From a virus (lineage: Duplodnaviria > Heunggongvirae > Uroviricota > Caudoviricetes), in IMG/VR virus record IMGVR_UViG_3300010365_001407, positions 49,463-113,462 of that record: DNA of 64,000 bases; one strand, written 5' to 3'. The translations under genes and the position numbers were made by a program. The notes under the pieces are model-generated. The model was not told the DNA's origin and did not search any database. It was given only the letters and a program-made list of their open reading frames with translations. Numbering within the stretch: position 1 is the stretch's first letter; each line of letters begins with the position of its first letter. Positions 7,034 to 38,729 of this stretch are shown here, piece after piece.

Positions 7034-7119
7034 AAGAGAGCAAGGGAATCGAACCCTAGCCAGTTTCCCGACCGTCACGCTTAGCAGGCGGACCCTATCA
7101 CCATCAAGGTTTACTCTCC
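7034..7119 (-). tRNA. tRNA-Ser (anticodon GCU), class II long variable arm
   Basis: Reverse complement has a 7/7 acceptor stem (GGAGAGT/GCTCTCT with G-U pairs), anticodon loop CUGCUAA, a long variable arm and T-arm GGGTTCGATTCCC. Confidence 0.6.
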
Positions 7120-7128
7120 ATTTTTTAG

Positions 7129-7214
7129 CAGTGAACAAGGGAATCGAACCCTAGCCAGTTTCCCGACCGAACTGCTTTCCAGGCAGACCCTATCACCATC
7201 AAGGTTTACTCACT
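7129..7214 (-). tRNA. tRNA-Ser (anticodon GGA), class II
   Basis: Near-identical scaffold to 7034-7119; anticodon loop CUGGAAA; acceptor AGTGAGT/GTTCACT. Confidence 0.6.
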
Positions 7215-7218
7215 ATTG

Positions 7219-7306
7219 CGGAAGAAGTGAGACTTGAACTCACACGGGTGTTACCCCCAACAGTTTTCAAGACTGCGACCCATAGACCAACTTGGCTTAT
7301 TCTTCC
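7219..7306 (-). tRNA. class II tRNA, anticodon read as UGA (Ser); assignment tentative
   Basis: Perfect 7-bp acceptor GGAAGAA/TTCTTCC, T-arm GTGAG-TTCAAGT-CTCAC, anticodon stem-loop GCAGT-CTTGAAA-ACTGT and a long variable arm. The D-arm is hard to place by eye. Confidence 0.5.
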
Positions 7307-7349
7307 ATATTTTTAATTATACCACTTATTGTACCTTTTGATACTTTTG

Positions 7350-7435
7350 TGGAGAAGTGAGGTATCGAACCCCATGCGAGTAAACGCACCCACAGTTTTC
7401 AAGACTGGGTTTAGCACCTGCTAAATTACTCCTCC
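7350..7435 (-). tRNA. class II tRNA, anticodon loop CTTGAAA (UGA-like); identity tentative
   Basis: Acceptor GGAGGAG/CTTCTCC, T-loop TTCGATA and a 17-nt variable arm. It has the same anticodon loop as 7219-7306, so one of the two may be mis-read. Confidence 0.45.
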
Positions 7436-7442
7436 ATATTTG

Positions 7443-7515
7443 TGATTCCAATAGGATTCGAACCTATATCTGATCGTTCGTAGCGACCTATCCTATCCAA
7501 TTGAACGATGGAACC
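7443..7515 (-). tRNA. tRNA-Arg (anticodon ACG)
   Basis: 73 nt; acceptor GGTTCCA/TGGAATC, anticodon stem GGTCG/CGATC with loop CTACGAA, T-arm TAGGTTCGAATCCTA. Confidence 0.6.
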
Positions 7516-7522
7516 AATAAAA

Positions 7523-7552
7523 AAACCCACAAACTTTGAGGTTTGTGGGTTT
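7523..7552. terminator. bidirectional rho-independent terminator hairpin
   Basis: AAACCCACAAAC-TTTGAG-GTTTGTGGGTTT is a perfect 12-bp stem flanked by A-run and T-run. Confidence 0.6.
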
Positions 7553-7727
7553 CAAATAACTTTTAACTTAAAATTATGAATACACAAGAACCTCACTCAA
7601 TTTACTTGAGCGACTTGAAGAACTTGACGATGTAGTGCTTTGCACTCTCACTATGTGAGTACTTATAATTGTTTTCATAACTTATATATTAAAAATTTAT
7701 TCTTTTGTTTTACTTTTTTACTTTTAG

Positions 7728-7820
7728 TAGTCTGAACAGGAATCGAACCTGTGATGCGCGGAAGATACCCCTACTATATATAGGATCGACTACATAATGT
7801 TACCACTACATTATCAGACT
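7728..7820 (-). tRNA. tRNA-like element with irregular core, possibly Ile(UAU)-like or a pseudo-tRNA
   Basis: Canonical acceptor AGTCTGA/TCAGACT and T-arm ACAGG-TTCGATT-CCTGT, but 93 nt long. About 10 extra nt sit between the D-arm and the only good anticodon-like hairpin (TCCTA-TATATAG-TAGGG), which has A at position 33. Confidence 0.35.
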
Positions 7821-7829
7821 ATTTTTTTG

Positions 7830-7901
7830 TGCGGACTGACGGAATCGAACCGACCTCTTATGGGCTTCAACCATACGCTAAACCGTCTCAGCTAAATCCG
7901 C
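7830..7901 (-). tRNA. tRNA-Phe (anticodon GAA)
   Basis: 72 nt; acceptor GCGGATT/AGTCCGC, anticodon stem TATGG/CCATA with loop TTGAAGC, T-loop TTCGATT. Confidence 0.6.
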
Positions 7902-8678
7902 ATTATATTTTTTTATCCATTTTCTTATAGTGTTATCACTAACACCATATTTTTTACCAGTTGAGACATAGTTTGTTTCTTTTATATCTTTTAATAGTTG
8001 GTATAATGAAGGTCTTTCAACCTTTCTTTGTTTAAATGAATCACATTTAGAACACATTTTAGAACGTTTATATATTTCTATACCACATTCACAATACTTT
8101 TTATTATCTAATAGTTCAAATGTTGGTTTGTTTTCTACTAATCCATTTATATAAAGTATTAAACTGTCAATAAAATACTTTTTAGAATCCTTGTTCAATA
8201 ATTGATACTCACTCCATTTTATTCTAATTATATCCCAACCTAAGTCTTCTAAATATTTATTTCTTCTTTTATCACTTTCAATAATTTTATTATCTAAATA
8301 GTGTTGACTACCATCAACCTCTATATCTATTTTCTTATCTAAAATACAAAAGTCTAATTCGTACAATCCAATTCTGTAGGATTTTGTTATATTAATATTT
8401 TTATCTAAAAAAACCTCAGTAAAATATTTCTCAGGATATGATTCATTTCTACTATGATTTAATAGGTAAGGAACTTTATCAGGATTATTTTTTAAATATT
8501 CTTTTCTACTATTTGATATTTTTTTTCTAGTTTCATCTGATAACTTTCTATTTTTACCAATTTCACTTAATTTACTACATCTAATTTTATAATTTGGATT
8601 TAATTTACAATTTGTAATATGTCCACCAAGTTTTAATCCATTTTCTGTTGTAAATCCACAATACTTACACTCCTTCAT
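7878..8678 (-). CDS. homing-endonuclease-like protein (N-terminal Zn finger, NUMOD3-like motifs, Vsr/DUF559-like PD-(D/E)xK domain)
   Basis: 266 aa; CKYCGF...HITNC, LSDETRKKISNSRKEY, and YELDFCILDKKIDIEVDGSQHY...RRNKYLEDLGWDIIRI. Confidence 0.6.
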   Translation of the reverse strand: MKECKYCGFTTENGLKLGGHITNCKLNPNYKIRCSKLSEIGKNRKLSDETRKKISNSRKEYLKNNPDKVPYLLNHSRNESYPEKYFTEVFLDKNINITKSYRIGLYELDFCILDKKIDIEVDGSQHYLDNKIIESDKRRNKYLEDLGWDIIRIKWSEYQLLNKDSKKYFIDSLILYINGLVENKPTFELLDNKKYCECGIEIYKRSKMCSKCDSFKQRKVERPSLYQLLKDIKETNYVSTGKKYGVSDNTIRKWIKKYNADLAETV

Positions 8679-8754
8679 AATTCAATTATCTTTTCTTTTA
8701 TATATAAATAATTGAACTCCCTCTCCTTAAAAAAGCTGAGTGCTTGTAAATTAG

Positions 8755-8833
8755 TTCCCCCGACTGGGTACGATCCAGTAGTCTGCATATTAAAAGTATG
8801 CGGCTTTCTCCATTTAAGCTACGGGAGAGAATT
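8755..8833. repeat. 79-bp direct repeat, copy 1 (contains tRNA-Lys)
   Basis: Identical to 9152-9231: GTTCCCCCGACTGGGTACGATCCAGTAGTCTGCATATTAAAAGTATGCGGCTTTCTCCATTTAAGCTACGGGAGAGAATT. Confidence 0.9.
8756..8828 (-). tRNA. tRNA-Lys (anticodon UUU) with A54:U58-swapped T-loop
   Basis: Acceptor TCTCCCG/CGGGGGA, D-stem GCTT/AAGC, anticodon stem GCATA/TATGC with loop CTTTTAA, T-arm ACTGG-ATCGTAC-CCAGT. Confidence 0.55.
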
Positions 8834-8838
8834 ATTTG

Positions 8839-8911
8839 GGTGAAAGACGGATCCCGAGACCGCATCTCCTCCTTCACAGGGAGGCATCCTAACCTTTAGA
8901 CGACAATCACC
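8839..8911 (-). tRNA. degenerate tRNA-His-like element (anticodon GUG, G-1/C73), possible pseudogene
   Basis: Perfect anticodon arm CCTCC-CTGTGAA-GGAGG with extra 5' G and discriminator C. Only 5/7 acceptor pairs and a non-canonical T-arm (GCGGT-CTCGGGA-TCCGT). Confidence 0.3.
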
Positions 8912-8920
8912 ATATATCAG

Positions 8921-8991
8921 CACGCCATACAGGACTCGAACCTGTAACACTGGTTTTGGAGACCAGGATGATACCATTTCACCAATGACGT
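8921..8991 (-). tRNA. tRNA-Trp (anticodon CCA)
   Basis: 71 nt; acceptor ACGTCAT/ATGGCGT, anticodon stem CTGGT/ACCAG with loop CTCCAAA, T-arm ACAGG-TTCGAGT-CCTGT. Confidence 0.6.
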
Positions 8992-8998
8992 ATTTTGG

Positions 8999-9072
8999 GT
9001 TGACAGACGGGACTTGAACCCGCAATCCCTTGGCTCACAACCAAGTGCTTTAACCAATTAAGCTACCATCAA
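8999..9072 (-). tRNA. tRNA-His (anticodon GUG)
   Basis: Acceptor TTGATGG/CTGTCAA (two G-U pairs), D-stem GCTT/AAGC, anticodon stem CTTGG/CCAAG with loop TTGTGAG, T-arm GCGGG-TTCAAGT-CCCGT, discriminator C. No encoded G-1. Confidence 0.5.
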
Positions 9073-9074
9073 AG

Positions 9075-9146
9075 TGGAGAGAGTGGGGATCGAACCCACG
9101 ACACCTGCGGCTTCAACACAGTGCTCTACCTCTGAGCTACCTCTCC
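9075..9146 (-). tRNA. tRNA-Phe (anticodon GAA), second copy
   Basis: 72 nt; acceptor GGAGAGG/TCTCTCC, D-stem GCTC/GAGC, anticodon stem CTGTG/CGCAG with loop TTGAAGC, T-arm GTGGG-TTCGATC-CCCAC. Confidence 0.6.
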
Positions 9147-9151
9147 TTTTT

Positions 9152-9231
9152 GTTCCCCCGACTGGGTACGATCCAGTAGTCTGCATATTAAAAGTATGCG
9201 GCTTTCTCCATTTAAGCTACGGGAGAGAATT
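9152..9231. repeat. 79-bp direct repeat, copy 2 (contains the second tRNA-Lys)
   Basis: Identical to 8755-8833. Confidence 0.9.
9153..9225 (-). tRNA. tRNA-Lys (anticodon UUU), duplicate
   Basis: Identical sequence to 8756-8828. Confidence 0.55.
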
Positions 9232-10446: not shown

Positions 10447-10665
10447 ATGATCCCATTTTTGTTTTTAATTTTTTATATATACTTTATGCCAGTACGCTCA
10501 AAATCACAACTTAAATACATCTTTGCAATGCGTAAGAAGTACAAATCAAAAAAGAATGCACCCAAAGATAAAAAATGGGTATTCAATGATGAATGGACTA
10601 AAGGTGTTGATACAGGTGGTATGCCAACTAAAGTAAAAGATTTTAAATCATTTAATGTTGATTAA
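10447..10665 (+). CDS. hypothetical small basic protein
   Basis: 72-aa ORF with a hydrophobic N-terminus; weak support. Confidence 0.3.
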   Translation: MIPFLFLIFYIYFMPVRSKSQLKYIFAMRKKYKSKKNAPKDKKWVFNDEWTKGVDTGGMPTKVKDFKSFNVD

Positions 10666-11066
10666 GCTAATGCTTCTTTAATTACTTCTGATACTACTTT
10701 TCTGTCAACTTGTAAAGTTGCAAACTCTTTCATAATACCACCAACATTAGTTACACCAGATGCTACAAGTTCATTTACTTTAGTAACAATATCCTCTCTT
10801 GTTAAAGCAGCTGGAAGTAAAGCTTCTACAATAGTTAATTGTAATTTAGACTCTTCATCACCACTTGTTGCAATAACCTCATTCAAAGATTTTGCAGTTT
10901 TGTTAAGGATTTTGATTACTTCTGCATCAGAAAGACAATCAACTCCTGTATTTTTTTCAATAGTTTGGATCTCTCCTTTTACTACAGAAAGTAAATTTTT
11001 TGCTACTGCATTTCTTTCTTTGAAAGCAGTCATGTAGTCTTTGCTAATTTTTTCTTTTAAACTCAT
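10662..11066 (-). CDS. GatB/YqeY-domain protein
   Basis: 134 aa; MSLKEKISKDYMTAFKERNAVAKNLLSVVKGEIQ...LLPAALTREDIVTKV...ASGVTNVGGIMKEF matches the YqeY / GatB C-terminal-domain family end to end. Confidence 0.7.
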   Translation of the reverse strand: MSLKEKISKDYMTAFKERNAVAKNLLSVVKGEIQTIEKNTGVDCLSDAEVIKILNKTAKSLNEVIATSGDEESKLQLTIVEALLPAALTREDIVTKVNELVASGVTNVGGIMKEFATLQVDRKVVSEVIKEALA

Positions 11067-14458: not shown

Positions 14459-14893
14459 TTAAACCATACCTCTTTTCATTTCCCTTTCTATATCTTTCTT
14501 TTTAATATCTTCTCTTTTATTCCATAATTTTTTACCAGTTGCCACACCAATCTTAATCTTAATTCTGTTTCTTTTTATAAAAACACTTAATGGTATAGCT
14601 GTTGTTCCTTTATCTTGTAGTTTTCTTTCAATTCTATTGATTTCTTTTCTGCTTAAAAGTAACTTCTTATCCCTGTTCTCTTCATGTTTTGTTAATGGAT
14701 GTGATGATTTATATCTTGCCACATTCATATTTTTGAGCCATACTTCACCATCTTTTAAGTAAATAAAAGAATCTGCTAAAGTAACATTACCCATCCTGAT
14801 TGACTTTACTTCACTTCCAACCAATACAACACCTGCTTCAAATTCCTCATGTATGTGGAATTCATAATATGCTTTTCTATTATTTACTATCAT
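14459..14893 (-). CDS. smpB: SsrA-binding protein SmpB
   Basis: 144 aa; NRKAYYEFHIHEEFEAGVVLVGSEVKSIRMGNVTLADSFIYLKDGEVWL...HPLTKHE...KLLLSRKEINRIERKLQDKG matches bacterial SmpB along its whole length. Confidence 0.8.
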   Translation of the reverse strand: MIVNNRKAYYEFHIHEEFEAGVVLVGSEVKSIRMGNVTLADSFIYLKDGEVWLKNMNVARYKSSHPLTKHEENRDKKLLLSRKEINRIERKLQDKGTTAIPLSVFIKRNRIKIKIGVATGKKLWNKREDIKKKDIEREMKRGMV

Positions 14894-25792: not shown

Positions 25793-25810
25793 AAAATTAA
25801 TATATACTAA
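25793..25810 (+). promoter_or_regulatory. AAAATTAATATATACTAA promoter-like motif
   Basis: 17 nt upstream of the ATG at 25828. Confidence 0.35.
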
Positions 25811-25827
25811 AAAATCATTTTAGAATA

Positions 25828-28800
25828 ATGGCAATTCAAAGTTCATTTCCAAAGGTAGCAGACCAAATAATATCTTATAATAAAAATATTGTTGAAATAC
25901 TATCTAAAATTAGTTCATTAACAACAACAACTGAATCATCAGTAAACCTTCAAATATATGATGCAAATGGAGTATTAAGAAACTTCACAATGCCATCCTT
26001 TACATCTTTAAAAGGTGAGATTGATAGACTAAATAATAATATAAATTCATTATATGGTATTGATGGTGCTGGTTCTTTAATACAAACAACTACACAAAAC
26101 AAATATAAAAAATTGGTTACTGTAGATTTGAATAGAGATCCTACTCCTATTAGTAGTGTTGGTTTTATATCTACTTTTAAATCAAGTCCTAACTGGTTCT
26201 TTGATTCATTAATGGATCCAATGATTTCTATTGAACTGGATTTATCTAATAAAATTGAAGATAATGTAAGAAAATGTTTAGTAAGAAGATATATGGTTGA
26301 TTTTGAAAAAAATGCAGATGGTTCATTAACTACTAATGGTCAATCAGCATTAAATTCTTATAACCAATTATTTAGAGGAAATGCAAATATTATTATTTCA
26401 GAATTTGAAAATTGGCACAAAACTACTACAGGTGTTTTAAATGCTATTAATCCTAAGTTTGATGAACAGATTTTTGATTTAGAACCAAATAACTTATTAT
26501 ATGATGGTCAATTTAGTGTATTAAGAATACAAGAAGATAGATTAAATAAAAAACTTTGGTATGTATTAGATACACTTGAGTATTTAGTAGTTGATGCAGG
26601 TCAAACTAAACAATTGGCAGTTGGTGATGAGTTAATTATTAATACTGCAAAATCATCTACTAAGTATAAAATTATAGAAGTTTCTACAGTTGAAAGTAAT
26701 CCAAGAGTTAGAGTTGAGAGATTAGAAGGTATTGAACCAATTCCAGTTGGTATTGGGACATTAAAAGTTTATTCTGATGTTATCTATACTAAAAAATGTA
26801 GAGTAAGTGTTGGTTACAATGAGAGAAATGTTCTTTTCATTAAACCAATTAATACTGATAATCACTTAGTTGCTAAGAAATGGAGTTTAGGTACAGGTTA
26901 CTATACTAATGATTTAAGATTGGATTCTTCATCTACTGCAAATGGTTTATCAATGGAACAATTCTATATTGATTATGTTTATGACTATGGTGTTGTTTTA
27001 CAAGATTTAGTTGCTAAGAAAACTCCTAATATATTAGGTGGTACTCCTGTTGCACCGGCTTTAAGTGTTGATAACTTTAAAGTTGTACAAATCAATAAAC
27101 ACCTTACAGACTCACCAGATTCTAATTTGGTTAAACAAAAACACAATTATCAATTATCTCTTAAATCTGAGATACAGCAAATACAAGAAGCAATTTCATC
27201 AAGAAATAAAACAGCTAAATTTACTAAATATAAATCTGACTCAGCAAAAAAACAAGCAGACTTAGAGATTGAAGGATTAGTATCTAAAAAAGATAGTAAG
27301 AGTAAATTACTTGCATCAGTAACTCAAGAGATTATTGATCTTTCTAAAGATCCTAAAACTAAAGTTGAACCTCAATTTAATGTAAGAGGTTTCTGGACTA
27401 TTCCTGCTGCAGTTATTACAACTGGAACTAGACCACAAGAAATTGTACAATTCAGAGTTCAATATAGAAAAGTAAGTAAAGATGGTAAAGAATCTCCTGT
27501 TGAAACTTATTCAATAACAGATTCTCAAAGTAAGGCAGCTTTCTCTAACTGGTCTGAATATAAAACAGATGCAAGAAAAAGAGTTTATAATAGTACAACT
27601 GGTGAATACACTTGGCAAATTGAAGATGTTACATCAGCAGATACACCAAATATAAATCAATTTGATTTACCTATTTTACCAAATGAAAGAATTGAATTTA
27701 GAATTAAATCAATTTCAGAGGTAGGTTGGCCAGAAGCAGCAGTTGAATCAGATTGGTCTGATATATTGACTGTGGACTTCCCAGATGACTTAAATACGGT
27801 TCTTAATGAAACTGACTTTATATTAAGAGAAGCTACTAAGGAAGACTTAAAAACAAGTATGAATGCTGAGCTATCTGCTAAAGGTTTAGATGAACACTTA
27901 TCAGATACAGTAACAGTTAATAATGTTACTTATCATCATGAAGCTAAGAAAGTTCTTTCAGGATTCCAAGATGAAAATGGAGTTTCATTAGATTTATATA
28001 CTTATATTAAAGCTTTAACTGATAGAATTACCTCATTAGAAGAAAAAATCAAAAGAGCTAAAGGTGAACTTGAAATCATTATTCTTAGAAATAATCAAGA
28101 GTTTATTATATCAAATGGTTCTGAAACAACATTTAATGTTGAGTGTGAAGATTACTTAGATTCTTATACTGCAACAGGTGCACCAACAGGTAGAGTTTAC
28201 CAAAACAATATCTATGTGATTAAAGACTTTGTTGTTAAGTTTAGAAATAAAGCTACAGAATCTGTACTTGGATTATTATCTAATAGAAATTATGTTGATG
28301 GTAGTGGAACTGTTTATAACTCAACTGCACCTCAAACCTTCTGGGTAAATAATCAAGATGAATTAAAAACAGTTGATGTTAGTGGTCAAACAAGAACACA
28401 ACTTGATAATCAATATATCTGGATGGTTAATTATGATTCAATTACTCAAACAACAGTTTCTAAATTATCAGAAAATGTTGGTAATGCATTTAATACAGAT
28501 AATTCAAACTCAGTAACAAGTGTACTTTCATCAACTGAATATAACCTTGGATATAATGAGTCATCAATATTAGCATTTATTGGTAATAATAAATCATTAC
28601 TAGATCCAACAAAATGGAATGATAGTACTATTTCAGTTGCATCAACTACTAAATTCTTGACTACAATTCATCCAGTTGTTAAAGACCTTGAAAGTATTCA
28701 AGAAGTAAATAGTGATAAGATTCATACAGTTGCTGCAGGAGATAAAAACTCTATAATAGTTCCATTGAATATTTATTTCAAAATGAACTCATTGGATAGT

Positions 28801-29028
28801 AGTCAAAATGGATTAAACTATCAATATATTGATTTGAATAATTCAACTCAAACAGTTAAACATGTTAAAAAGTTAAAATTCTTTGTAGAAAATGAATCTG
28901 AAAATAGACCATTTACATTCACTCTTAAATTTAACTTAAACAGAAATAAAGTTGCAGTTAGAAAATTCAATAATATAGGTGGTGGACCTGCATATATTGA
29001 TGATTATTCAACAACAAGTAAAAAATAA
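25828..29028 (+). CDS. large virion structural protein (putative)
   Basis: 1066 aa; heads the structural block, gene order and size only. Confidence 0.55.
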   Translation: MAIQSSFPKVADQIISYNKNIVEILSKISSLTTTTESSVNLQIYDANGVLRNFTMPSFTSLKGEIDRLNNNINSLYGIDGAGSLIQTTTQNKYKKLVTVDLNRDPTPISSVGFISTFKSSPNWFFDSLMDPMISIELDLSNKIEDNVRKCLVRRYMVDFEKNADGSLTTNGQSALNSYNQLFRGNANIIISEFENWHKTTTGVLNAINPKFDEQIFDLEPNNLLYDGQFSVLRIQEDRLNKKLWYVLDTLEYLVVDAGQTKQLAVGDELIINTAKSSTKYKIIEVSTVESNPRVRVERLEGIEPIPVGIGTLKVYSDVIYTKKCRVSVGYNERNVLFIKPINTDNHLVAKKWSLGTGYYTNDLRLDSSSTANGLSMEQFYIDYVYDYGVVLQDLVAKKTPNILGGTPVAPALSVDNFKVVQINKHLTDSPDSNLVKQKHNYQLSLKSEIQQIQEAISSRNKTAKFTKYKSDSAKKQADLEIEGLVSKKDSKSKLLASVTQEIIDLSKDPKTKVEPQFNVRGFWTIPAAVITTGTRPQEIVQFRVQYRKVSKDGKESPVETYSITDSQSKAAFSNWSEYKTDARKRVYNSTTGEYTWQIEDVTSADTPNINQFDLPILPNERIEFRIKSISEVGWPEAAVESDWSDILTVDFPDDLNTVLNETDFILREATKEDLKTSMNAELSAKGLDEHLSDTVTVNNVTYHHEAKKVLSGFQDENGVSLDLYTYIKALTDRITSLEEKIKRAKGELEIIILRNNQEFIISNGSETTFNVECEDYLDSYTATGAPTGRVYQNNIYVIKDFVVKFRNKATESVLGLLSNRNYVDGSGTVYNSTAPQTFWVNNQDELKTVDVSGQTRTQLDNQYIWMVNYDSITQTTVSKLSENVGNAFNTDNSNSVTSVLSSTEYNLGYNESSILAFIGNNKSLLDPTKWNDSTISVASTTKFLTTIHPVVKDLESIQEVNSDKIHTVAAGDKNSIIVPLNIYFKMNSLDSSQNGLNYQYIDLNNSTQTVKHVKKLKFFVENESENRPFTFTLKFNLNRNKVAVRKFNNIGGGPAYIDDYSTTSKK

Positions 29029-29037
29029 TAAGTCATA

Positions 29038-32000
29038 TTGAAATCATTTGCAATATTAAGAACCAATGTTGGTTTAACAACTAATATAAAAATAATGATT
29101 GATACTAACTATAAATTAAGTTTAGATAGTATTGAATCAAATATGAATTTGTCTTTTGATAAGTTCAAAAAGGTCTCATTTAATAAGAGTAATTATTATG
29201 ATGAACTAATTCCTTATTTTTATAAAGATTTACCTGCAGAAACAGCATATAGTATAAAATATGAGAGTGATGCAGAAACAATGTCAAATGATTTTGCTTA
29301 TCAGTATGATGAGTTATATAACTATGGTGCAAGAAATATTATAGATAATAAAAATTACTCAGAAGAGTATGAATACTTTGCACCTCTTTATATTACTAAA
29401 ACAGGACTTCCTAAAAAGTTTATTGTATTTAGAGTAGATGAACCAGGTATTGGAACATTAACAACTGCAAATTTTAAAACAGAAATAATTAATAAATTAA
29501 AAACTGTTAAGTTATTTGACTTGACAAAAGAAAGTATATTTGGAGAATGGTTACACACTAACTTTATTGATAATAAATATTTTCCAGATTCACCATTAGA
29601 AATAGACTTTAGAAGTCTTGAGTTTTGTAGATGGAATGGTATTGATTATCAAAATGGTGGTTATACATCTAAGTCATTATTTATTGATGATATTTTAGAT
29701 GAAGAAAAAGAGATATTTGAACTTGAAAAGTTTGTATTTGACTCTTATAAAAACAATAAAGTTGTTTTTCCTAACATATTAAACTTATCATTTTTATTTG
29801 ATGATACACCTTCTACGCCAGAACAAAAAAGAAGATGGTCTATAAATAGATATTATGGATTTTATTTAGATGATTTAAAGTTGGTAACAACAATGTCATC
29901 TTATATACCTGTACCTTTAAAAAATGATATTATTGTTTTATCAGGTACTGATAGAAATATATTATCGTCACCAAGTGGTTATCCATTTGAAGAAGTTTGG
30001 ACTGATAAAAAGCCTTTTTATGTAGAGTATAGTGGTAAATATTATAAAGTAGAACAATATACTGAAACTATAACAAATCAACTAATTAAGATTAAAAATA
30101 CTACAGGTAATACATCAGTTGATAGAATGGAAAGAGACTTAGGATTTAGTTCATCTAAAAAACAAGCATCTACTGTTAAAATGGTTAATACTAAAAACCT
30201 AACAACAAATACAAAATCTGCAGTTGAGAATTATGGTGAGGTAATTGTAACTAAATATAGAATAATATCTGATTTAGATTTTGGTGGAATGACTTATTCA
30301 AGTTTCAATCAAAACTTTGGTGAAATTAAAAACAATCAATTGATTGATATGAGTAAAAATCCAATTTTAATAGATGGATTTGATAGTGCTGATATTTGGT
30401 TAATTAATATAGATGGTGTTTACCATAATTTAATTAATAGTGGTACTAATTCAATTAGTGTTAATAGTGATTACTCATTCCAATTTAATGAGAATAGTTA
30501 TACTTATAAAGTAAATGGTGTTGAAAAAACAATCAATACAATAGTTGACTTTAATAATCCACCTACAATATTTGATATTTACAAATTAAAACTTACAGAT
30601 ATTAAAGACTTTGATGATAGATTAGTTGATACTGAGTATTCTAAATATGAATATGAGAAGTCAACTGAATTAACAAATACTGATGAGACTAAGATGTATT
30701 TTGAAGATTTGACAAGTAAAACTGATCCAAGAGATTTAGATGACTTTGTTTATAAGAATGAAGTGGTTAAAATTCCTGTATCATCTGAGTACACTGCAAA
30801 TTATGAAACTTTTAAAGTTGATGATACAACTGGTAATTTATCAGAGTTATGGAGAAAGAACTCAGTTTATTGTAGATTTGGATTTCAAAACTCAATATCA
30901 GGAAATGACGTACCTTACTTATTAAATAATTCATTAATATTTGAAGATTATAATAGGACTGTAAATGTTTCTGATATTCATCCTAAAAGAATTGAAAGAA
31001 ATTTAGATTACTTTTATACAATAAACTCAGCAACATCATCATATTTACATCATACATTACATGTTGAGGGATTTACCTATAGTAGTATTGATAACACATT
31101 TAAGTTTGAGTTAGATAAATATTTGAACTTACAATATGATATGGTTTTAGGTACTTATTCTTATGATTACTTTAGTTATTTCTTTAGCAAACAAACACAA
31201 TTTTTAAATGGTGATATTAAGAAGAATACTAGAAAATACTCTTATTTTAATGTAGGTGATGACTCTGTACCTAATCATAGTTTATTTAGAGGTATTAGAT
31301 TTGATGTTTATAAAGTAGAAGGTGTTAACTTAAACTCTAATAATCAGATTGATAAAATTAACATATCAACAAATAATGATTTTGTAGATTATAAAATGTC
31401 TGTTTTATTATCTGATAATGATTATCAACCAATATTTTTAGATAATAATTCAAATCAAATTATTGGGTTGACATATTCTCCTAATCAATTAGAATGGAGT
31501 ATAATTGATGAGTGGAAAATGGATAAAGTTTATGCAACTGGTTCAGTTGTTATATTTGATGATATTTTATTTACTAATCCTAATGGTACTTTAGGACCTT
31601 GTGGACCTACAATTAACTTAAATGGTAATAATGTTATATCAAATCCAAGTAATCAAGGTTGGAATATTTATAGTGATGGAGTAAATAATGATAATAGAAT
31701 ATTTTGGTCACCAAGACAAAATGATACATTTATTTATAATTCTGGTGAGTATTGGCAAAAAAACTTTACAACAGAAACAGGAAGTGATTATATAAATTTT
31801 TGGATTCCACCAGATACACAATCTAGTTCTAATTATGGAACAGGAAGTATTGTAATGTATAACAATAAGGTTTATATATCTAATACATATAATAATAACT
31901 TTCATCCAAATCAAAAACAATGGATAGATATATCAACTATTAGTAAGTTTGATTCTAGTATAACATATTCTAAGTCAGATATAGTAATAAGTACTGATTC

Positions 32001-33339
32001 ATATTATATTTCATTAGTTGATAAAAACAAAGGAAATAATATTGAAAATAGCCTTGTATGGGAAAGAACTGTAAATAAACCAACTGCTGATTTATTTTAT
32101 TGGAAATTAATAGAGATTTGGAATCCAACTAAGAGATATGAACAACAAGCTTATGTTGTTCATAATAATGTATTATATAGAAATTTTAGACGTCAAGTAA
32201 CTCAAATGCAAGTACAGCAACTTTTTAGACCTCAAAATCCTTATTTAGAGATGTTACCTGGTTTTGAACCAGGAGTTGATGTTGATTGGGCTAGACAATA
32301 TAGTTTAGTTCCAGATACAGATTATACTTATAGCATATATAGTAATCCAATTATTTTATTAAATGATAGATATTATATGGCAACTAATAAAACAGAAGAT
32401 TCAACTCTGGATAATGGTATTGTAATCTATATCAATAAAAAGTGGGAAAATATATTGGTTAATATAAATATATCAGATAATACATATACTAATGTTTCAT
32501 CAACTAATAGAGATGATCTTTATAATGAGTTATATAAGAAATTAACTGCTACTAATTTTATGACTGCTATAAATGATATAACTAATAAATATGGATTTAC
32601 AGATTATGTATCTTATATAGTTATTGATAATGATAATACAATTAGTAAGTATAGTTATACTAATAATATTACTAGTCTACCTTATATAATTAAATGTGAA
32701 GGACCTGATAGTTTAGATGTTAAAATACAATCTTTGTTAAAAAGACCTATTTACTTACCTAATCCATTAAATCCAATTAAAAAGTTAGAAAAGGGTAAGA
32801 TATTAAATATTAATCAATTAAACTACTATAATGGTAATCCAGTTGGTGTAAATATAATTGAAAATAGATTTGCTCCTAAAGTAACTGAGAATTATCATGG
32901 TGCTACAAATTATATAAAAGATACTATTTATAGATTCAGTGGTTATTATATGCCATTATTTTATGATATAGAATTATTTAAAAGAGATTATGAGTACAAA
33001 GAAGTAGGTAATTATTTATTTGATACTTCATTAACAAATTTTGGTATTATTAAAGAAAGAAAAGTTAGAAAGATAAATAGAAAAGGAAGTATTCTAAAAT
33101 TAAAAGATAGTCCAGATGAGAAATCTATCTATCCAATGTTAGATGAATTTGGTTACTCTATCTATGACTTTTTCATATTCTCATCAACTTGGGATTTAAA
33201 GTATTACTTAGAAACATCTACATTAACTAAGGCAAATAAAGATTATTTAGAGAAATATACAATAGATGAAAATATTGTAAATAACAATAATATAGTAATA
33301 CCTATTACAATACCAACAAATATTGGACCATCAAATTAA
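29038..33339 (+). CDS. very large virion structural protein (putative)
   Basis: 1433 aa, N/Y/T-rich; follows the previous gene after a 9-nt gap. Confidence 0.55.
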   Translation: MKSFAILRTNVGLTTNIKIMIDTNYKLSLDSIESNMNLSFDKFKKVSFNKSNYYDELIPYFYKDLPAETAYSIKYESDAETMSNDFAYQYDELYNYGARNIIDNKNYSEEYEYFAPLYITKTGLPKKFIVFRVDEPGIGTLTTANFKTEIINKLKTVKLFDLTKESIFGEWLHTNFIDNKYFPDSPLEIDFRSLEFCRWNGIDYQNGGYTSKSLFIDDILDEEKEIFELEKFVFDSYKNNKVVFPNILNLSFLFDDTPSTPEQKRRWSINRYYGFYLDDLKLVTTMSSYIPVPLKNDIIVLSGTDRNILSSPSGYPFEEVWTDKKPFYVEYSGKYYKVEQYTETITNQLIKIKNTTGNTSVDRMERDLGFSSSKKQASTVKMVNTKNLTTNTKSAVENYGEVIVTKYRIISDLDFGGMTYSSFNQNFGEIKNNQLIDMSKNPILIDGFDSADIWLINIDGVYHNLINSGTNSISVNSDYSFQFNENSYTYKVNGVEKTINTIVDFNNPPTIFDIYKLKLTDIKDFDDRLVDTEYSKYEYEKSTELTNTDETKMYFEDLTSKTDPRDLDDFVYKNEVVKIPVSSEYTANYETFKVDDTTGNLSELWRKNSVYCRFGFQNSISGNDVPYLLNNSLIFEDYNRTVNVSDIHPKRIERNLDYFYTINSATSSYLHHTLHVEGFTYSSIDNTFKFELDKYLNLQYDMVLGTYSYDYFSYFFSKQTQFLNGDIKKNTRKYSYFNVGDDSVPNHSLFRGIRFDVYKVEGVNLNSNNQIDKINISTNNDFVDYKMSVLLSDNDYQPIFLDNNSNQIIGLTYSPNQLEWSIIDEWKMDKVYATGSVVIFDDILFTNPNGTLGPCGPTINLNGNNVISNPSNQGWNIYSDGVNNDNRIFWSPRQNDTFIYNSGEYWQKNFTTETGSDYINFWIPPDTQSSSNYGTGSIVMYNNKVYISNTYNNNFHPNQKQWIDISTISKFDSSITYSKSDIVISTDSYYISLVDKNKGNNIENSLVWERTVNKPTADLFYWKLIEIWNPTKRYEQQAYVVHNNVLYRNFRRQVTQMQVQQLFRPQNPYLEMLPGFEPGVDVDWARQYSLVPDTDYTYSIYSNPIILLNDRYYMATNKTEDSTLDNGIVIYINKKWENILVNINISDNTYTNVSSTNRDDLYNELYKKLTATNFMTAINDITNKYGFTDYVSYIVIDNDNTISKYSYTNNITSLPYIIKCEGPDSLDVKIQSLLKRPIYLPNPLNPIKKLEKGKILNINQLNYYNGNPVGVNIIENRFAPKVTENYHGATNYIKDTIYRFSGYYMPLFYDIELFKRDYEYKEVGNYLFDTSLTNFGIIKERKVRKINRKGSILKLKDSPDEKSIYPMLDEFGYSIYDFFIFSSTWDLKYYLETSTLTKANKDYLEKYTIDENIVNNNNIVIPITIPTNIGPSN

Positions 33340-33347
33340 TAATAAAA

Positions 33348-34037
33348 ATGAGAAGAAGTTATATATCACCAGAGTATCAAACTAAAGCAGTATATGGAAC
33401 ATTAAACATGCTTGAAGAAAGTACATTTTTTGGTGCAAAAATGTTAGAAATAGAAGATAGTATAAGTATAGATACTTTAGATATAATCTACTATCAAAAT
33501 CAAAATGGTGAACAATTAGACCTTTCAATTGAATCATCATTGGCTTCTATTGTTTACTCTTCATCTTTAGATAAAAAAGGTAATCATACTTTAATTTTGG
33601 ATCCTTCTCAACCAAAATATCAGTTAGATAATAATACAAGATGGATATTAACAATAGATTTAAAAACTATAATAACTGACTATTTATTTGCTACACTTAA
33701 AAAGTATAGAACCTTTGAAGGTATCAAAAATGATATGAATATTTATGCAAATACAGATACTGCAATTAAGAGTTATATAAACTATAATATTCTTAATAGA
33801 TATAAATACAAAGGTATTCAATTATATGTAAACTATATAGATTTAAGAAACCAAACAGCATTAAGATATAGTAATGAATGGAATAAAAATGTTATTACCA
33901 ATTCTAACATTTTAACTAAGTTACAAACTGAAACTGAGTTTGATGAGTCTTCAATTAAGGTTACTTTTAATCAGGAGAAACCAAGTTCAACTTATAGATT
34001 TGATTATTATTTCAATATTTTATTTGAAAAAATATAA
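33348..34037 (+). CDS. hypothetical protein
   Basis: 229-aa ORF. Confidence 0.5.
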   Translation: MRRSYISPEYQTKAVYGTLNMLEESTFFGAKMLEIEDSISIDTLDIIYYQNQNGEQLDLSIESSLASIVYSSSLDKKGNHTLILDPSQPKYQLDNNTRWILTIDLKTIITDYLFATLKKYRTFEGIKNDMNIYANTDTAIKSYINYNILNRYKYKGIQLYVNYIDLRNQTALRYSNEWNKNVITNSNILTKLQTETEFDESSIKVTFNQEKPSSTYRFDYYFNILFEKI

Positions 34038-34067
34038 ACTTACTTAATGTAAACTCATAAAAAACTT

Positions 34068-34415
34068 ATGAATGAAGAGTTTCAAAACAATCTTGTAAAT
34101 TTTCTAAAACTATTTAAAAATAGACCTTATCATCTAGCTAAGTATCTAATGGATAACTCTGCTCTAACAAAAGACTTTTATAATAAAATATCAAAATCTG
34201 ATAAATTGGAAAACAATAAATACTTTACTGATATAACAGAAATGAATGAGTTCTATAATTCAATATTAGATATTAAGAAATCTAAAAAGTCTATAGAAGA
34301 GATTACTAAGACTGCAAATGAAAAAATGGATGAACTTATTAAAAGTGAAAATTTTGAACAAGCAGCAAGGCTTAGAGATTATATGACAAAGAATAAAATA
34401 AAAAGATTGAAGTAA
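34068..34415 (+). CDS. UVR-motif-containing small protein
   Basis: 115 aa; C-terminal ENFEQAARLRDYM resembles the UvrB/UvrC (UVR) interaction motif. Confidence 0.4.
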   Translation: MNEEFQNNLVNFLKLFKNRPYHLAKYLMDNSALTKDFYNKISKSDKLENNKYFTDITEMNEFYNSILDIKKSKKSIEEITKTANEKMDELIKSENFEQAARLRDYMTKNKIKRLK

Positions 34416-34467: not shown

Positions 34468-35556
34468 ATGACACAAGAAATTTTAAACCCAGAATTAGGT
34501 AATCCAGACTTTGATCTTTTATATGCAGATGATATATATAAAAGAGGACAAAAGTTACAAGATAAATACCTTGATTCACTTTATGACTCTATTCAAATAG
34601 AGACCCCATCTGCTGGTTCAGTAGTAAGATCTACTTATTTGGGTATGATGTCCAATCAATATGTGTTCAGTGTTGTTGGTTACAAAGATGATGTTCGTAT
34701 TGAGAACAAACCAGGTGAGGCAAAATACCTTAACTCCATTGAAGTTGGAGAACAAGTTGATTTGTTAATCACTGAGGTAGTACAAAGTACTTACTTCATC
34801 AAAGGAAGTATTGCTTCTTTATATGAATCTAGAGCTCATGAAAATATGAAGTCTTTAGAGGAAGGAGAATCAGTAACTGCTTATATTAGAGCTTTAAACC
34901 CTGCAGGTTACGATGTAGAGTTGACAAATGGAGGAGTTACTCTTCCTGCGTTTATGCCTAATACCTTGGCAGGTATCAACAAGCTTTATGACCCAAGTTC
35001 TATTATTGGAGACACTTTCCAAGTAATGGTTGAGTCATTCTCTGAACATGAAGGAACTTACATAGTAAGTCGTAGAAAGTATCTACAAAGCTTGATTCCT
35101 GATGAAATCAGTAATCTTGAGTTCAATACTCTATATTCAGGTAGAGTTACTGGTACTACACCATTTGGTATCTTTGTTGAGTTTAATGAATGTCTAACAG
35201 GTATGATCCACAAAGCTAATGTAATAGAAGAGTGGCAAAACAGAATCTCTGAAATCAAACCAGGACAAGAAATTGAATTCTATATCAAGGAGATTATCAA
35301 AGATAAGATTATCCTTACACAAGTTTTGAGAGAAACTTTATGGGACACTATCAAAAATGGTCAATTGATTGAAGGTAGAGTAAAAGATGTTAAACAATTT
35401 GGTACTTTGGTTATCTTAGATGATGAAACAGTTGGATTAATCCACACATCAGAAATGGAGAAACTTGGTAAGAAGTTCACATCTGGACAAGATATTAGAG
35501 TGAAAGTTCTATCAGTAGATAGAAGTTCACGTAAAATCTTCTTAACTTTAGGATAA
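34468..35556 (+). CDS. ribosomal protein S1-like protein (four S1 RNA-binding repeats)
   Basis: 362 aa; four S1 repeats of about 70 aa, e.g. GRVTGTTPFGIFVEFNECLTGMIHKANV and GRVKDVKQFGTLVILDDETVGLIHTSEM; ends VDRSSRKIFLTL. Confidence 0.7.
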   Translation: MTQEILNPELGNPDFDLLYADDIYKRGQKLQDKYLDSLYDSIQIETPSAGSVVRSTYLGMMSNQYVFSVVGYKDDVRIENKPGEAKYLNSIEVGEQVDLLITEVVQSTYFIKGSIASLYESRAHENMKSLEEGESVTAYIRALNPAGYDVELTNGGVTLPAFMPNTLAGINKLYDPSSIIGDTFQVMVESFSEHEGTYIVSRRKYLQSLIPDEISNLEFNTLYSGRVTGTTPFGIFVEFNECLTGMIHKANVIEEWQNRISEIKPGQEIEFYIKEIIKDKIILTQVLRETLWDTIKNGQLIEGRVKDVKQFGTLVILDDETVGLIHTSEMEKLGKKFTSGQDIRVKVLSVDRSSRKIFLTLG

Positions 35557-35571
35557 TACCTAATTCAAATA

Positions 35572-35604
35572 AAAAACCTCATATTTTCATATGAGGTTTT
35601 TTTT
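35572..35604. terminator. bidirectional terminator hairpin
   Basis: AAAAACCTCATAT-TTTC-ATATGAGGTTTTTTTT. Confidence 0.6.
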
Positions 35605-36488: not shown

Positions 36489-37913
36489 TTATTTTTTACC
36501 TTTTTTGTCAGTAGTTTCATCAACTACTGGAATGTCAATAACATTACTATTATTTGCAGGTTTCATACCTTTACCCATCATTTCCATGATTTGCATTCCA
36601 AGTAATCCATCTAATGAACCATTACCTTGTCCACCACCATTGATTAATAAGTCAGGCATAATTTTCACTTTACCTTTACCAATCTCTTCTGTTACTTTGA
36701 ATGTAGTAAAGTTATCTTTACCCATTGCATTAACTGCCAATTCATATGCTTTAGCAGTAGAAGTACCTACAGCTAATATTGCATCTGCATCTGCTTCACC
36801 AATAAGTTTTTTCTTTGTTGCTTCTGCTTCAGCATTTAATTTAGTTGCCTCTGCATTAGCTTCTGCTGCAATTTTTACTGAACTAGCAGCACCTGTTGCT
36901 TTTTTAACTTCTGCATCTGCAATTTTCTCTGAAATCTCAACACCTTGATTTGCTTTTACAACTTCACCTTGCATATCTGCAATTGCAGTTTGTTTTTCAA
37001 CACCTTGTCTTCTTACTTGAGCTTTTTCTTGAGTTTCATAAGTAACTTGTTGTTCTTCTGCAATTTTACGATCAGTTAATGTTTTCATTAATGATTCTGG
37101 TGGTGTAATATCACCAATCAATGTATCAACTGCATGAACATTCAATATTCTTCAAGAACAGAAGATATTGATTTTTTTGCAGCATCTTGTCTTGATTGAC
37201 GAGTAGATAAGAATGCAATAACATCTGAATCTTGTGCAGAGTTTCTAAAATAGTTACCAATTGTAGGCTCTAATACTTGTGATACAAGGTTTTGCATAGA
37301 ACCAAAACGTGCAATTACTTTTGGTGCTTCTGTCATTGGAATGTGAATAATCTGAGATACATCTAAGTTAAATGGGAAACCATCTTTAGAACGAACAGTA
37401 ATTAAAATCAGTTCTTGTAACTTTATCAGGTGTATCATAAAGAACTTGTTCAAGTGCCATTTCTCTTGCATCATCAGTAGGTAGTTTTTTAAATCTCCAA
37501 GAACTAAACATTAGTTTTCTTGATACTCCTTCAAATCTAACATAGTTATCAATATGTGTATAAGTACCTCCACTCCAATTTTTCATTTGTTTGCTAACAC
37601 TTGATAATTCATTTATCTTATACATACCACCTTTAACCAAAGTTTTGTAACTATCACTCTTACAGATAAGAATATCTCCTTTTGATAATTGTGAAAACTC
37701 TAATGGTTCTTCAACATTCTCTATTTTCCTAGCTATGTCAATTTTTGGCAAAGGTTTACCATCAGTAGTTTCAAAGTTATTGACTGTATACCAACCTATA
37801 TCTTTAATCCAAGCTCTACCAATTCTATCTTTCTTACTATTCTCTAATGCAACTACTTGATATGGTAAACCCTTTACCAATTTTATAGTTGCTTTTTTAC
37901 AAATTACTACCAT
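36489..37913 (-). pseudogene. SPFH/band-7 (flotillin-like) gene split over three reading frames
   Basis: ORFs 37386-37913, 37142-37474 and 36489-37145 read together: ...KLPTDDAREMALEQVLYDTPDKVTRTDFNY / VRSKDGFPFNLDVSQIIHIPM...AAKKSISSVLEEY / NVHAVDTLIGDIT...AEANAEATKLNAEAEATKK. That is an SPFH domain plus an Ala/Glu/Lys coiled-coil tail. Both frame changes sit in A/T homopolymer runs. Confidence 0.5.
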
Positions 37914-38312: not shown

Positions 38313-38729
38313 CTATTTGTTATAATCTAATTTTTTTGTTAATTCTATTAGGTCTTCCTTAGTTAATTTACTAAGTATAAATTTAATTGTATCTTCTTGA
38401 TTAGTGAAGTAATTTAAGTTATCTGATATAAAGTCAATATAATCTTCTTGTTCTCCTAATCCCAATGTTAATAATTTGTATTCTCTTTCAAATTCAAGAC
38501 CACCATTTACTAAATACTGACCACCTACATCTTTCAAGTCTTTTCTAAATTGTTCAATACTTTTATCTCTTGATATTTCAAACTCAACTATCCTATTAAT
38601 ATCATAATCAAAAGTATCTACAATATCTTTGGATTCTTTCAATCCAAGACCACTTACTTCCTTTATAAGTTTTACAAATGCTAATTTACTTGGTGTTTTT
38701 TGAACACACTTCATTCTTATCTTTTTCAT
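38313..38729 (-). CDS. hypothetical protein
   Basis: 138-aa ORF. Confidence 0.45.
   Translation of the reverse strand: MKKIRMKCVQKTPSKLAFVKLIKEVSGLGLKESKDIVDTFDYDINRIVEFEISRDKSIEQFRKDLKDVGGQYLVNGGLEFEREYKLLTLGLGEQEDYIDFISDNLNYFTNQEDTIKFILSKLTKEDLIELTKKLDYNK

Follow-up and report, generated by a model that had tools for sequence, protein, structure and literature searches.

Does an S1-domain protein encoded by a megaphage belong on the ribosome, or does it bind RNA away from it? The question is raised by a gene in a 64,000-nucleotide stretch of a Caudoviricetes genome (positions 49,463 to 113,462 of the IMG/VR record IMGVR_UViG_3300010365_001407), hereafter called the window. Ribosomal proteins have long been seen as a dividing line between cells and viruses, and for viral bS1 it is unproven whether the product is a true ribosomal protein or a mere RNA binder with S1 domains, a caveat already expressed in the huge-phage paper of 2020 (PMC7162821). 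The original prediction, made from the sequence of the window alone, described the gene as four consecutive S1 RNA-binding repeats without the N-terminal repeats that anchor bacterial bS1 to the ribosome, and assigned it to a phage module for the redirection of translation. The analysis reported here arrives at a different architecture: the phage protein, hereafter phage S1, consists of the anchoring domain pair D1-D2 followed by two RNA-binding domains, and it is D5-D6 that are absent. Whereas bS1 of Proteobacteria and Bacteroidia has six OB (oligonucleotide/oligosaccharide-binding) domains in 557-591 amino acids (aa), phage S1 has four in 362 aa.

A divergent homologue of bS1

The open reading frame (ORF) begins with ATG and its product was followed up by profile, structure and substitution-rate comparisons, the last expressed as dN/dS, the ratio of nonsynonymous to synonymous substitution rates:

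34468..35556, plus strand: phage bS1 homologue gene, four OB domains, 362 aa (ORF, rpsA profiles, PDB, Foldseek, dN/dS)

The NCBIfam/TIGRFAM rpsA models match the protein at E values of 5e-31 to 1e-31 (TIGR00717 at 5.3e-31), the PDB chains of Escherichia coli bS1 at 1.3e-24, and PF00575 scores 76.7 bits on the whole protein (E 1.9e-21, gathering threshold 22) over two stretches, aa 237-296 and aa 294-361. In the single-sequence comparison with the PDB, E. coli bS1 scores higher than Flavobacterium johnsoniae bS1 (90 against 51 bits); a PHROGs search with the protein returned no meaningful match. Because the curated cut-offs of the rpsA models are failed and there are four domains instead of six, phage S1 is best described as a divergent bS1 homologue and not as an equivalog.

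Other proteins with S1 domains were considered and rejected. Models for PNPase, RNase R/II, RNase E, Tex, GSP13/CvfD/YabR, Rrp5 and eIF2-alpha cover only one or two of the C-terminal repeats (mostly aa 290-361, some aa 214-257) and stay far under their cut-offs. Neither nuclease nor KH domains were found in phage S1, and its structural matches to other S1 proteins are confined to single domains. The original prediction had allowed that the repeats might turn out to be of the PNPase, RNase E or cold-shock-domain type; instead, bS1 is the top match by both sequence and structure.

Domain architecture

An AlphaFold2 model built from 69 family sequences (mean predicted local distance difference test, pLDDT, 76.7; predicted template modelling score, pTM, 0.46, in keeping with a beads-on-a-string arrangement) contains four consecutive five-stranded OB barrels of ~65 aa each, at about aa 52-114, 135-201, 223-286 and 300-361, in agreement with the four repeats of ~70 aa proposed earlier. 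The domains were assigned as follows:

34606..34821, plus strand: OB domain 1, aa 47-118, homologue of bS1 D1 (family D1 profile; K73 equivalent to E. coli Lys43; no Pfam S1 match)
34858..35082, plus strand: OB domain 2, aa 131-205 (AGY...FMP..LAG.NKL), homologue of bS1 D2 (family D2 profile, aromatic residues, dN/dS)
35116..35337, plus strand: OB domain 3, aa 217-290, canonical RNA-binding S1 domain (PF00575, E 3.5e-10)
35347..35553, plus strand: OB domain 4, aa 294-362, canonical RNA-binding S1 domain (PF00575, E 1.7e-10)

PF00575 scores 40.5 bits on D3 and 41.5 bits on D4, whereas the D1 and D2 segments, searched separately against Pfam, gave nothing even at E = 10. The search with this model, which the original prediction had suggested for counting the repeats, hence confirms an S1-like protein and delimits D3 and D4 only, and the description as S1 RNA-binding repeats holds for the C-terminal two but not for the N-terminal two. 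D1 and D2 of bS1 are known for giving no Pfam S1 match; together they hold bS1 on the 30S subunit via uS2, and their RNA binding is not canonical.

The assignment of the first two domains is carried by several comparisons. In the rpsA models, it is the N-terminal region to which aa 37-361 align (positions 6-342 of 516 in TIGR00717), and aa 43-360 align collinearly with residues 15-345 of E. coli bS1, which correspond to D1-D4. PDB chains consisting only of D1-D2 match aa 40-208 (2mfl, E 1.3e-5; 4r71, 1.7e-4), and 4q7j, which holds bS1 residues 1-281, matches phage S1 at 3e-9. Per-repeat profiles were made from 119 diverse family members and each was scored against the six separate E. coli domains. 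The D2 profile reaches 48.0 bits on E. coli D2 and at most 11.9 on every other domain, and E. coli D1 is the top-scoring domain for the D1 profile (25.2 bits, the next domain 18.7). The D3 profile is nearest to E. coli D4 (44.8 bits), and the D4 profile scores 60.0 bits on D4, 54.1 on D5 and 49.6 on D3; in this matrix the two C-terminal domains behave as generic RNA-binding S1 domains, nearest to E. coli D4 and D5. In Foldseek the top PDB match of the model is ribosome-bound E. coli bS1 (9gut_B, E 4.5e-22, 356 columns), and ribosome-bound chains with D1-D2 only are matched with target TM-scores (template modelling scores) of 0.62-0.68. D2 and D3 are the most conserved stretches of the protein.

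The collinear alignment, the Pfam result for each domain and the matrix of domain profiles refute an architecture of D3-D6, the E. coli domains with which a structural comparison had been recommended, in favour of D1-D4. The anchoring repeats that were thought to be missing are present, as seen from the collinear alignment, the D1-D2-only chains and the domain profiles, and D5-D6 are missing in their stead. No split gene for D5-D6 was found downstream of the S1 stop codon, where a terminator and a convergent gene are located. An architecture of D1-D2 plus two RNA-binding domains reverses the implied mechanism: the protein would dock on the ribosome instead of binding RNA freely.

Residues for anchoring and RNA contact

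With regard to the anchoring DETERMINANTS of E. coli bS1, the N-terminal helix is essential and provides the main hold on uS2, with F5 and F9 stacking on uS2 F32, while Lys43 in the beta2-beta3 loop of D1 inserts into the zinc pocket of uS2, F79 stacks on uS2 His18, and Lys117, Phe120 and Phe130 of D2 are located near the mRNA (PMC4288201; PMC10123108). In the alignment of phage S1 to E. coli bS1, K73 is the equivalent of Lys43 (G-Y-K-D against G-L-K-S). This residue is invariant in two alignments of closer relatives (A2 and A3) and is K or R in 103 of the 119 diverse members. The D2 aromatics correspond to Y148 (F120 in E. coli; aromatic in 116/119) and F162 (F130; aromatic in 115/119), and F79 corresponds to Y109, which is aromatic in 72/119.

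Ahead of D1 lies a further segment that might contact the ribosome:

34468..34605, plus strand: N-terminal extension, aa 1-46, candidate uS2/uS8-docking segment (AlphaFold2 model, family conservation, profile of N-terminus plus D1)

Its first 28 residues are aromatic-rich and modelled as disordered (pLDDT <50), and they are followed directly ahead of D1 by a predicted helix, aa 31-41 (QDKYLDSLYDS), with a pLDDT of ~70. The modelled helix appears amphipathic and aromatic, its hydrophobic/aromatic stripe Y34/L35/L38/Y39 is kept across the family, and in many relatives it reads (S/P)YAQ(D/E)LY(D/A)L(M/Y), reminiscent of SFAQLFEESL in E. coli. The best PDB match of a profile of the N-terminus plus D1 is 9zcd_A, aligned from residue 1 with an E value of 7.9e-8; this chain can be recognised as F. 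johnsoniae bS1 by its residues 11-20, FLANFNWHNF. The N-terminal 42 residues of F. johnsoniae bS1 form a helix-loop-helix bound to uS2 and uS8 (PMC13000457). Compared with F. johnsoniae bS1 on its own, the phage extension scores a marginal 5.4 bits, equalled in 31 of 2000 shuffles (p ~0.016); we do not claim a conserved uS8-contact helix, and the Bacteroidia-like N-terminus of phage S1 is suggestive, a lead rather than a result.

The RNA-contact positions of D3 are F233 (aromatic in 108/119), F236 (118/119), H248 (94/119) and K280 (basic in 112/119), and those of D4 are F311 (aromatic in 99/119), H326 (57/119) and R355 (basic in 105/119), which together we take to be the canonical S1-domain set of Bycroft et al. 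1997. Judged by these positions, D3 and D4 retain their RNA-binding residues.

Family and selection

An exhaustive protein library clustered at 50% identity gave 136 representatives at E <1e-30, nearly all of them 350-400 aa long and aligned from end to end, and long cellular-type S1 proteins enter the same list only at ~1e-29 to 1e-36. Many metagenomes contain near-identical proteins (98-99%), encoded on contigs of up to 656 kb and named 'ribosomal protein S1' by JGI, and relatives are encoded on contigs of 587-709 kb with megaphage content. BFVD likewise holds viral '30S ribosomal protein S1' entries with four OB domains and 360-385 aa, the best of which reaches 45% identity. The family is large, old, of uniform architecture and already annotated as S1.

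The gene is under purifying selection, with dN/dS values of 0.044, 0.093 and 0.133 in comparisons with relatives whose proteins are 98, 90 and 81% identical. Broken down by part, D2 and D3 together have the lowest values (0.03-0.07; D2 alone 0.05-0.06) and D3/D4 lie at 0.03-0.15, while the N-terminus plus D1 evolves fastest (0.16-0.41). The speed of the latter fits either a docking surface that co-evolves with the uS2 of different hosts or weaker constraint.

A profile scan of genome contigs with alignment A2 found no informative cellular relatives, only mis-binned phage contigs and two distant matches of 22-28% identity in metagenome-assembled genomes (MAGs) of Verrucomicrobia and Leptolyngbya. 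Three contigs that carry the S1 gene block described below (L004, L005 and L006) were placed in MAGs that bear the labels Flavobacteriales, Candidatus Muiribacterium and Saccharofermentanales; in all likelihood they are pieces of megaphage genomes that were mis-binned as bacterial.

Phage leaders and a proposed role in initiation

A Shine-Dalgarno (SD)-like 4-mer is present at positions -20..-4 in only 1 of 51 genes, against a background of 7.3%. The leaders contain 60-76% A at many positions and 2-8% G, compared with 13% in the genome, and 63% of the genes have A at -3. By composition, these A-rich leaders lacking SD motifs are initiation regions in the style of Bacteroidia. Huge phages with a putative rpS1 have been reported to carry SD sequences rarely (Al-Shayeb et al., PMC7162821).

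We propose, at a probability of roughly 60%, that phage S1 docks on the host 30S subunit at uS2, replacing host bS1 or standing alongside it, and that D3-D4 capture A/U-rich leaders and so favour phage mRNAs. During infection, phage S1 would dock at the mRNA exit side of the 30S subunit of a host that is probably a Bacteroidia bacterium, with ribosomes that would be SD-blind and dependent on bS1 and on unstructured A-rich leaders. There it would take or share the place of the readily exchangeable host bS1, D3-D4 would capture and unfold the extremely A/U-rich phage leaders, and this capture would sustain initiation or bias it toward phage messages. While bS1 identity and the D1-D4 architecture are read directly from the comparisons above, ribosome binding and an effect on translation are what we infer from them. 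In E. coli, D1-D3 constitute a minimal S1 that keeps 30S binding, mRNA docking and melting/unfolding, and deletion of D5-D6 barely affects RNA binding (PMC3858243). Since D1-D3 are competent and D5-D6 nearly dispensable in that organism, a natural protein of the D1-D4 type should be competent as well, and by inference phage S1 would work like a minimal bS1.

Several observations weigh against this proposal and must be set beside it. The distance to the curated rpsA families is large, as TIGR00717 scores 107.7 bits against a cut-off of 577 and all rpsA models, including those of the NF0049xx series, are far under theirs. Asp39 and Lys117 of E. coli bS1 are not conserved, with V69 and P145 in their places, the aromatic residues of the pre-D1 helix are spaced unlike F5 and F9 and cannot be aligned with them residue for residue, and in the AlphaFold2 model strands 3 and 4 of D1 are linked by a helix, whereas a loop links them in E. 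coli D1. To these are added the marginal score of the extension and the fast evolution of the N-terminus and D1, in which constraint may be relaxed. Finally, the S1 gene shares its unit with genes for giant proteins and not with translation genes.

That the gene is a fragment of cellular rpsA, present through contamination, mis-assembly or recent capture of a host gene now decaying, could be suspected from the relatives found in bins labelled as bacterial MAGs; yet those contigs share the phage gene block with this locus, the gene occurs on the 587-709 kb megaphage contigs, its family is deep, uniform in length and under purifying selection, and phage-type genes and homing endonucleases abound in the window, so that context and dN/dS rule out contamination or a pseudogene and the chance of such an origin is minute. 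Hardly more credible is the version of the original prediction, in which four anchor-less repeats of the D3-D6 type act as a free RNA binder within a contiguous translation-redirection module. It accounts for the existence of four OB repeats, for the resemblance of the two C-terminal ones to D3-D6 and for the presence of translation genes in the window, but not for first and second repeats that lack a Pfam S1 match and are specific to D1 and D2, for an alignment with bS1 that is collinear from residue 15 and matches D1-D2-only chains, or for translation genes dispersed over 30 kb on both strands.

Two further explanations accept the D1-D4 architecture and differ in the use to which it is put. 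In one, D1-D2 serve off the ribosome as an adaptor for a phage partner, in the way Q-beta replicase uses D1-D2 of host S1; candidates for this partner are a phage polymerase, a nuclease and the co-transcribed giant proteins, and D3-D4 would deliver RNA to it or serve as a free RNA chaperone or mRNA-stability factor. The place of the gene in a conserved unit that encodes two giant proteins and one with a UVR motif, rather than among translation genes, speaks for such a role, as do the lack of strict conservation of F5/F9 and the fast D1 and N-terminus, and Al-Shayeb et al. allow a role 'on or off the ribosome' (PMC7162821). We nevertheless consider it unlikely, though the most serious of the competing explanations, because the Lys43 equivalent and the D2 aromatics facing uS2 and mRNA are kept across a very deep family, the profile of N-terminus and D1 resembles a Bacteroidia bS1 that binds uS2/uS8, and no partner is identifiable. 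In the other explanation, phage S1 is a decoy that blocks the uS2 site and displaces the six-domain host bS1 without recruiting mRNA itself, so that fewer host mRNAs dependent on full-length bS1 are translated and phage mRNAs with short leaders or none are favoured. E. coli ribosomes without functional S1 are reported to favour leaderless mRNAs. S1-depleted ribosomes and leaderless mRNAs are mentioned in PMC4288201. A decoy would agree with the retention of the anchoring half and the absence of D5-D6, as well as with the short distance, 13-35 nt, that separates many start codons from an upstream promoter-like motif of the TATATATA type, by which many leaders may be very short. A pure decoy would, however, have no need for D3/D4 that are strongly conserved (dN/dS 0.03-0.15) and keep their RNA-binding residues (F233, F236, H248, K280, F311 and R355), and E. 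coli S1 is still functional without D5-D6; this explanation is accordingly improbable, more so than an off-ribosome role.

Starting from docking at uS2, a bolder and rather doubtful extension can be formulated. Here megaphage S1 would be a dedicated specificity subunit for SD-blind Bacteroidia ribosomes, in which a host-adapted N-terminus, D1 and D2 dock, host bS1 is replaced, and D3-D4 read a phage-specific A/U-rich leader signature; together with the bL12-like protein, SmpB and the tRNAs described below it would give rise to 'phage-specialised ribosomes', a switch that the strictly conserved co-transcription with the two giant proteins would tie to one stage of infection.

A probable transcription unit of the S1 gene

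The S1 gene is the last of five plus-strand genes separated by gaps of 9, 8, 30 and 52 nt. The four that precede it are:

25828..34415, plus strand: four co-oriented upstream block genes (gaps, conserved block)
25828-29028, plus strand: first block gene, 1066 aa (ORF)
29038-33339, plus strand: second block gene, 1433 aa (ORF)
33348-34037, plus strand: third block gene, 229 aa (ORF)
34068-34415, plus strand: fourth block gene, 115 aa, UVR motif (Pfam annotation of the homologues in the related loci L001 and L010)

This five-gene block is kept in relatives whose S1 proteins are 98, 90, 81 and 58% identical, and is also visible in a contig at 60%. For the 1066-aa and 1433-aa proteins nothing was found in the PDB or, going by the annotation of L001, in Pfam, and PHROGs gave only phrog_29329, a family of unknown function. 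The 115-aa protein directly upstream of the S1 gene carries a UVR motif of the UvrB/UvrC type, is always adjacent to S1 in the relatives and could be a partner of it.

The unit is flanked by two elements of transcription:

25797..25815, plus strand: promoter-like element TTAATATATACTAAAAAA, 30 nt upstream of the first block gene
35571..35602, no strand assigned: bidirectional intrinsic terminator with a 14-bp stem, an A-run on one side and a T-run on the other, separating the S1 gene from a convergent gene

A motif of the TTAATATATACTAAAAAA type precedes only the first of the five start codons, and a single internal TATATATA string on the plus strand lies at 34533 within the S1 coding sequence. 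The upstream motif is kept at -26 to -29 in L001, L009, L010 and L003. Across the window, the motif TT(A/T)ATATATA followed by an A-run is clustered 13-35 nt upstream of start codons, and 30 of its 49 occurrences fall within 80 nt upstream of a start on the same strand (for example at 25798, 3430, 42156, 44941 and 57326). It may represent a phage-specific, possibly late, promoter read by the phage sigma factor encoded at 18244-18888, and its proximity to the starts implies very short leaders for many genes. The Bacteroidetes-type -7 motif TAnnTTTG was not clearly enriched upstream of genes (7/142 matches) and was not used as evidence for the host.

At the other end, the terminator search found 2 candidates against 0.3 expected in shuffles. 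A hairpin with a T-run follows the S1 stop codon in all five loci compared, with stem sequences that differ and pairing that is kept. Phage S1 would be expressed from the last gene of a conserved five-gene unit, transcribed from the phage-type TATATATA promoter-like element to the bidirectional terminator.

Genome context and other translation genes

The window has a GC content (guanine plus cytosine) of 27% and comes from a megaphage of the Lak/Mahaphage type. In a tblastn search the closest phage records were 'uncultured phage' genomes of 634-735 kb, LR745206 and LR756501-504 (66, 60 and 42% identity), together with Lak phages. These genomes make up the Mahaphage clade, for which Bacteroidetes are the predicted hosts of all members above 634 kb, as they are for Lak phages (PMC7162821).

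Apart from S1, the window contains the following genes related to translation:

7035..9226, minus strand: tRNA cluster, ~13 genes, 25 kb from the S1 gene
10662..11066, minus strand: YqeY-like (GatB C-terminal-like) gene (PF09424, 47.2 bits)
14459..14893, minus strand: SmpB gene, full length, 20 kb from the S1 gene (PF01668, 177 bits)
38313..38729, minus strand: 138-aa protein with the C-terminal domain of bL12 at aa 13-71 (PF00542, 34.5 bits, cut-off 25.9)

The tRNA cluster includes four long-arm tRNA-Ser genes (gct, gga and two tga), duplicated Phe-gaa and Lys-ttt, as well as Arg-acg, Trp-cca and His-gtg, and a tRNA at 8839-8910 was detected by Rfam only. No suppressor tRNAs were found in the cluster; an Rfam 'tRNA-Sec' at 7351-7435 that was considered as a possible suppressor is in fact a long-arm tRNA-Ser (tga). 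A 94-nt tRNA-like gene at 7727-7820 on the minus strand, to which ARAGORN assigns a 4-nt anticodon (cgat), has an internal TATATATAG stretch and does not appear in the Rfam output; it may contain an intron or be otherwise unusual. Neither ARAGORN nor Rfam found a tmRNA in the 64-kb window, and the phage SmpB may work with the host tmRNA or with one from another part of the phage genome. The bL12-like protein lacks the N-terminal dimerisation domain of bL12, has an unrelated C-terminal tail and is not part of the S1 unit; its gene is kept beside DUF6915 and CoaE in L001 and L009.

The set of translation genes listed in the original prediction exists in part, with SmpB, YqeY and the tRNAs present, the latter numbering ~13 and not 14, while the match to a nucleotidyltransferase is sub-threshold (24.1 bits against a Pfam threshold of 25). 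They do not form the module that had been postulated around them. The tRNAs, YqeY and SmpB are 20-27 kb from the S1 gene on the opposite strand, the translation genes as a whole are scattered over 30 kb on both strands, and the S1 gene belongs to a block with giant proteins. Between the translation genes lie a sigma-70-family factor, an NAD-dependent ligase, methylases, at least seven homing-endonuclease ORFs and giant proteins. The window is therefore part of a genome rich in translation genes, as in huge phages, and holds no module that contains the S1 gene.

ORFs of the homing-endonuclease type are unusually dense in the window (one HNH, three LAGLIDADG and three GIY-YIG, in addition to a Hint/intein-like domain):

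9238-9702, 13559-14428, 15800-16522, 22569-23312, 39470-40117, 42185-42994, 50380-51852 and 58702-59787: homing-endonuclease/Hint-type ORFs

Several of them occupy sites at which gene content differs among relatives, which suggests an active turnover of mobile elements. The genome downstream of the S1 terminator is likewise variable among relatives. There, a remnant of a Band_7/SPFH gene (36489-37474, minus strand, junction at 37403) corresponds to no more than aa 326-626 of the L001 protein, which has 632 aa. A deletion of ~1.75 kb relative to L001, joining its positions 12563 and 14318, took the N-terminal half, and the remnant is frameshifted near 37145, while the relatives have an intact protein of 629-632 aa. 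Further downstream, two more giant ORFs on the plus strand (44973-50399, 1808 aa; 51912-57320, 1802 aa) have only weak pentapeptide, beta-propeller and P-domain matches and are followed by a protein (57353-58006) with a Gp10-like baseplate C-terminal domain, so that the region may be devoted to the tail or baseplate.

Comparison with known systems

A phage S1 was suggested from viromes before 2019 (PMC6375957), S1 was reported in huge phages in 2020 (PMC7162821) and in the cultured jumbo cyanophage PhiMa05 in 2026 (PMC13157829). The closest precedent is the rpS1 of huge phages (Al-Shayeb et al. 2020, Nature 578:425, PMC7162821), which is the same kind of gene in the same Mahaphage/Lak clade, from which the nearest records also come, in genomes that likewise lack SD sequences, and for which the same initiation-redirecting role was proposed. 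The present locus has the traits by which those genes were described, namely an S1-domain protein, relatives on contigs of 587-709 kb and an SD motif in 1/51 genes. That paper made no domain assignment and called a true rpS1 hard to confirm because the S1 domain is ubiquitous, whereas for the present family the D1-D2 pair, the Lys43 equivalent and the four-domain architecture are assigned and the family is found to be large and uniform. Hence, the existence of S1 in huge phages was already known, and what is new is that the family retains the D1-D2 anchoring pair and the uS2-pocket lysine; no domain-level analysis of megaphage S1 was found in the searchable literature.

With cellular bS1 (E. 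coli P0AG67; F. johnsoniae PDB 9zcd, 591 aa), phage S1 shares the collinearity of D1-D4, the Lys43 equivalent, the D2 aromatics and the RNA-contact residues, and a helix is predicted ahead of D1. The length of its extension and the second helix of the extension are suggestive of the Bacteroidia form, while F5/F9 of E. coli bS1 have given way to a Y/L stripe of other spacing and Asp39 and Lys117 are lost. In domain content it is like the E. coli truncations D1-D3 and delta-D5-D6 (Duval et al. 2013, PMC3858243), yet those are engineered truncations of a cellular protein, whereas phage S1 is natural and conserved, and its D3/D4 are nearest to E. coli D4/D5 and not to D3. The four-domain S1 of low-GC Gram-positive bacteria (NF005208, PRK06676, 391 positions) is similar in length and also has four OB domains, with aa 43-360 of phage S1 aligning to positions 12-346 of 391, but at 85.4 bits against a cut-off of 368 phage S1 is not a member of that family.

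Among viral proteins, other ribosomal proteins of viruses are likewise peripheral, exchangeable and under purifying selection, and incorporation into the ribosome has been demonstrated for viral bS21 and bL12 only, not for bS1 (Mizuno et al. 2019, PMC6375957). The BFVD entry A0A8D9CG03, from an uncultured marine phage, is named '30S ribosomal protein S1' and has 373 aa. The bS1 of PhiMa05, in contrast, groups with Vampirovibrio homologues and is one of a set of six proteins (PMC13157829).

Implications for megaphage translation

With D1-D2 and the uS2-pocket lysine kept and only the dispensable D5-D6 dropped, a vague annotation becomes a testable hypothesis, according to which phage S1 binds the Bacteroidia 30S subunit and stimulates initiation on SD-less, A-rich leaders. 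Such a test is feasible, since ribosome structures and in vitro translation systems of F. johnsoniae exist. For annotation, the family of 350-400 aa can be named 'phage bS1, D1-D4 type'. If the hypothesis is true, it would explain how the largest phages capture ribosomes without Shine-Dalgarno pairing.

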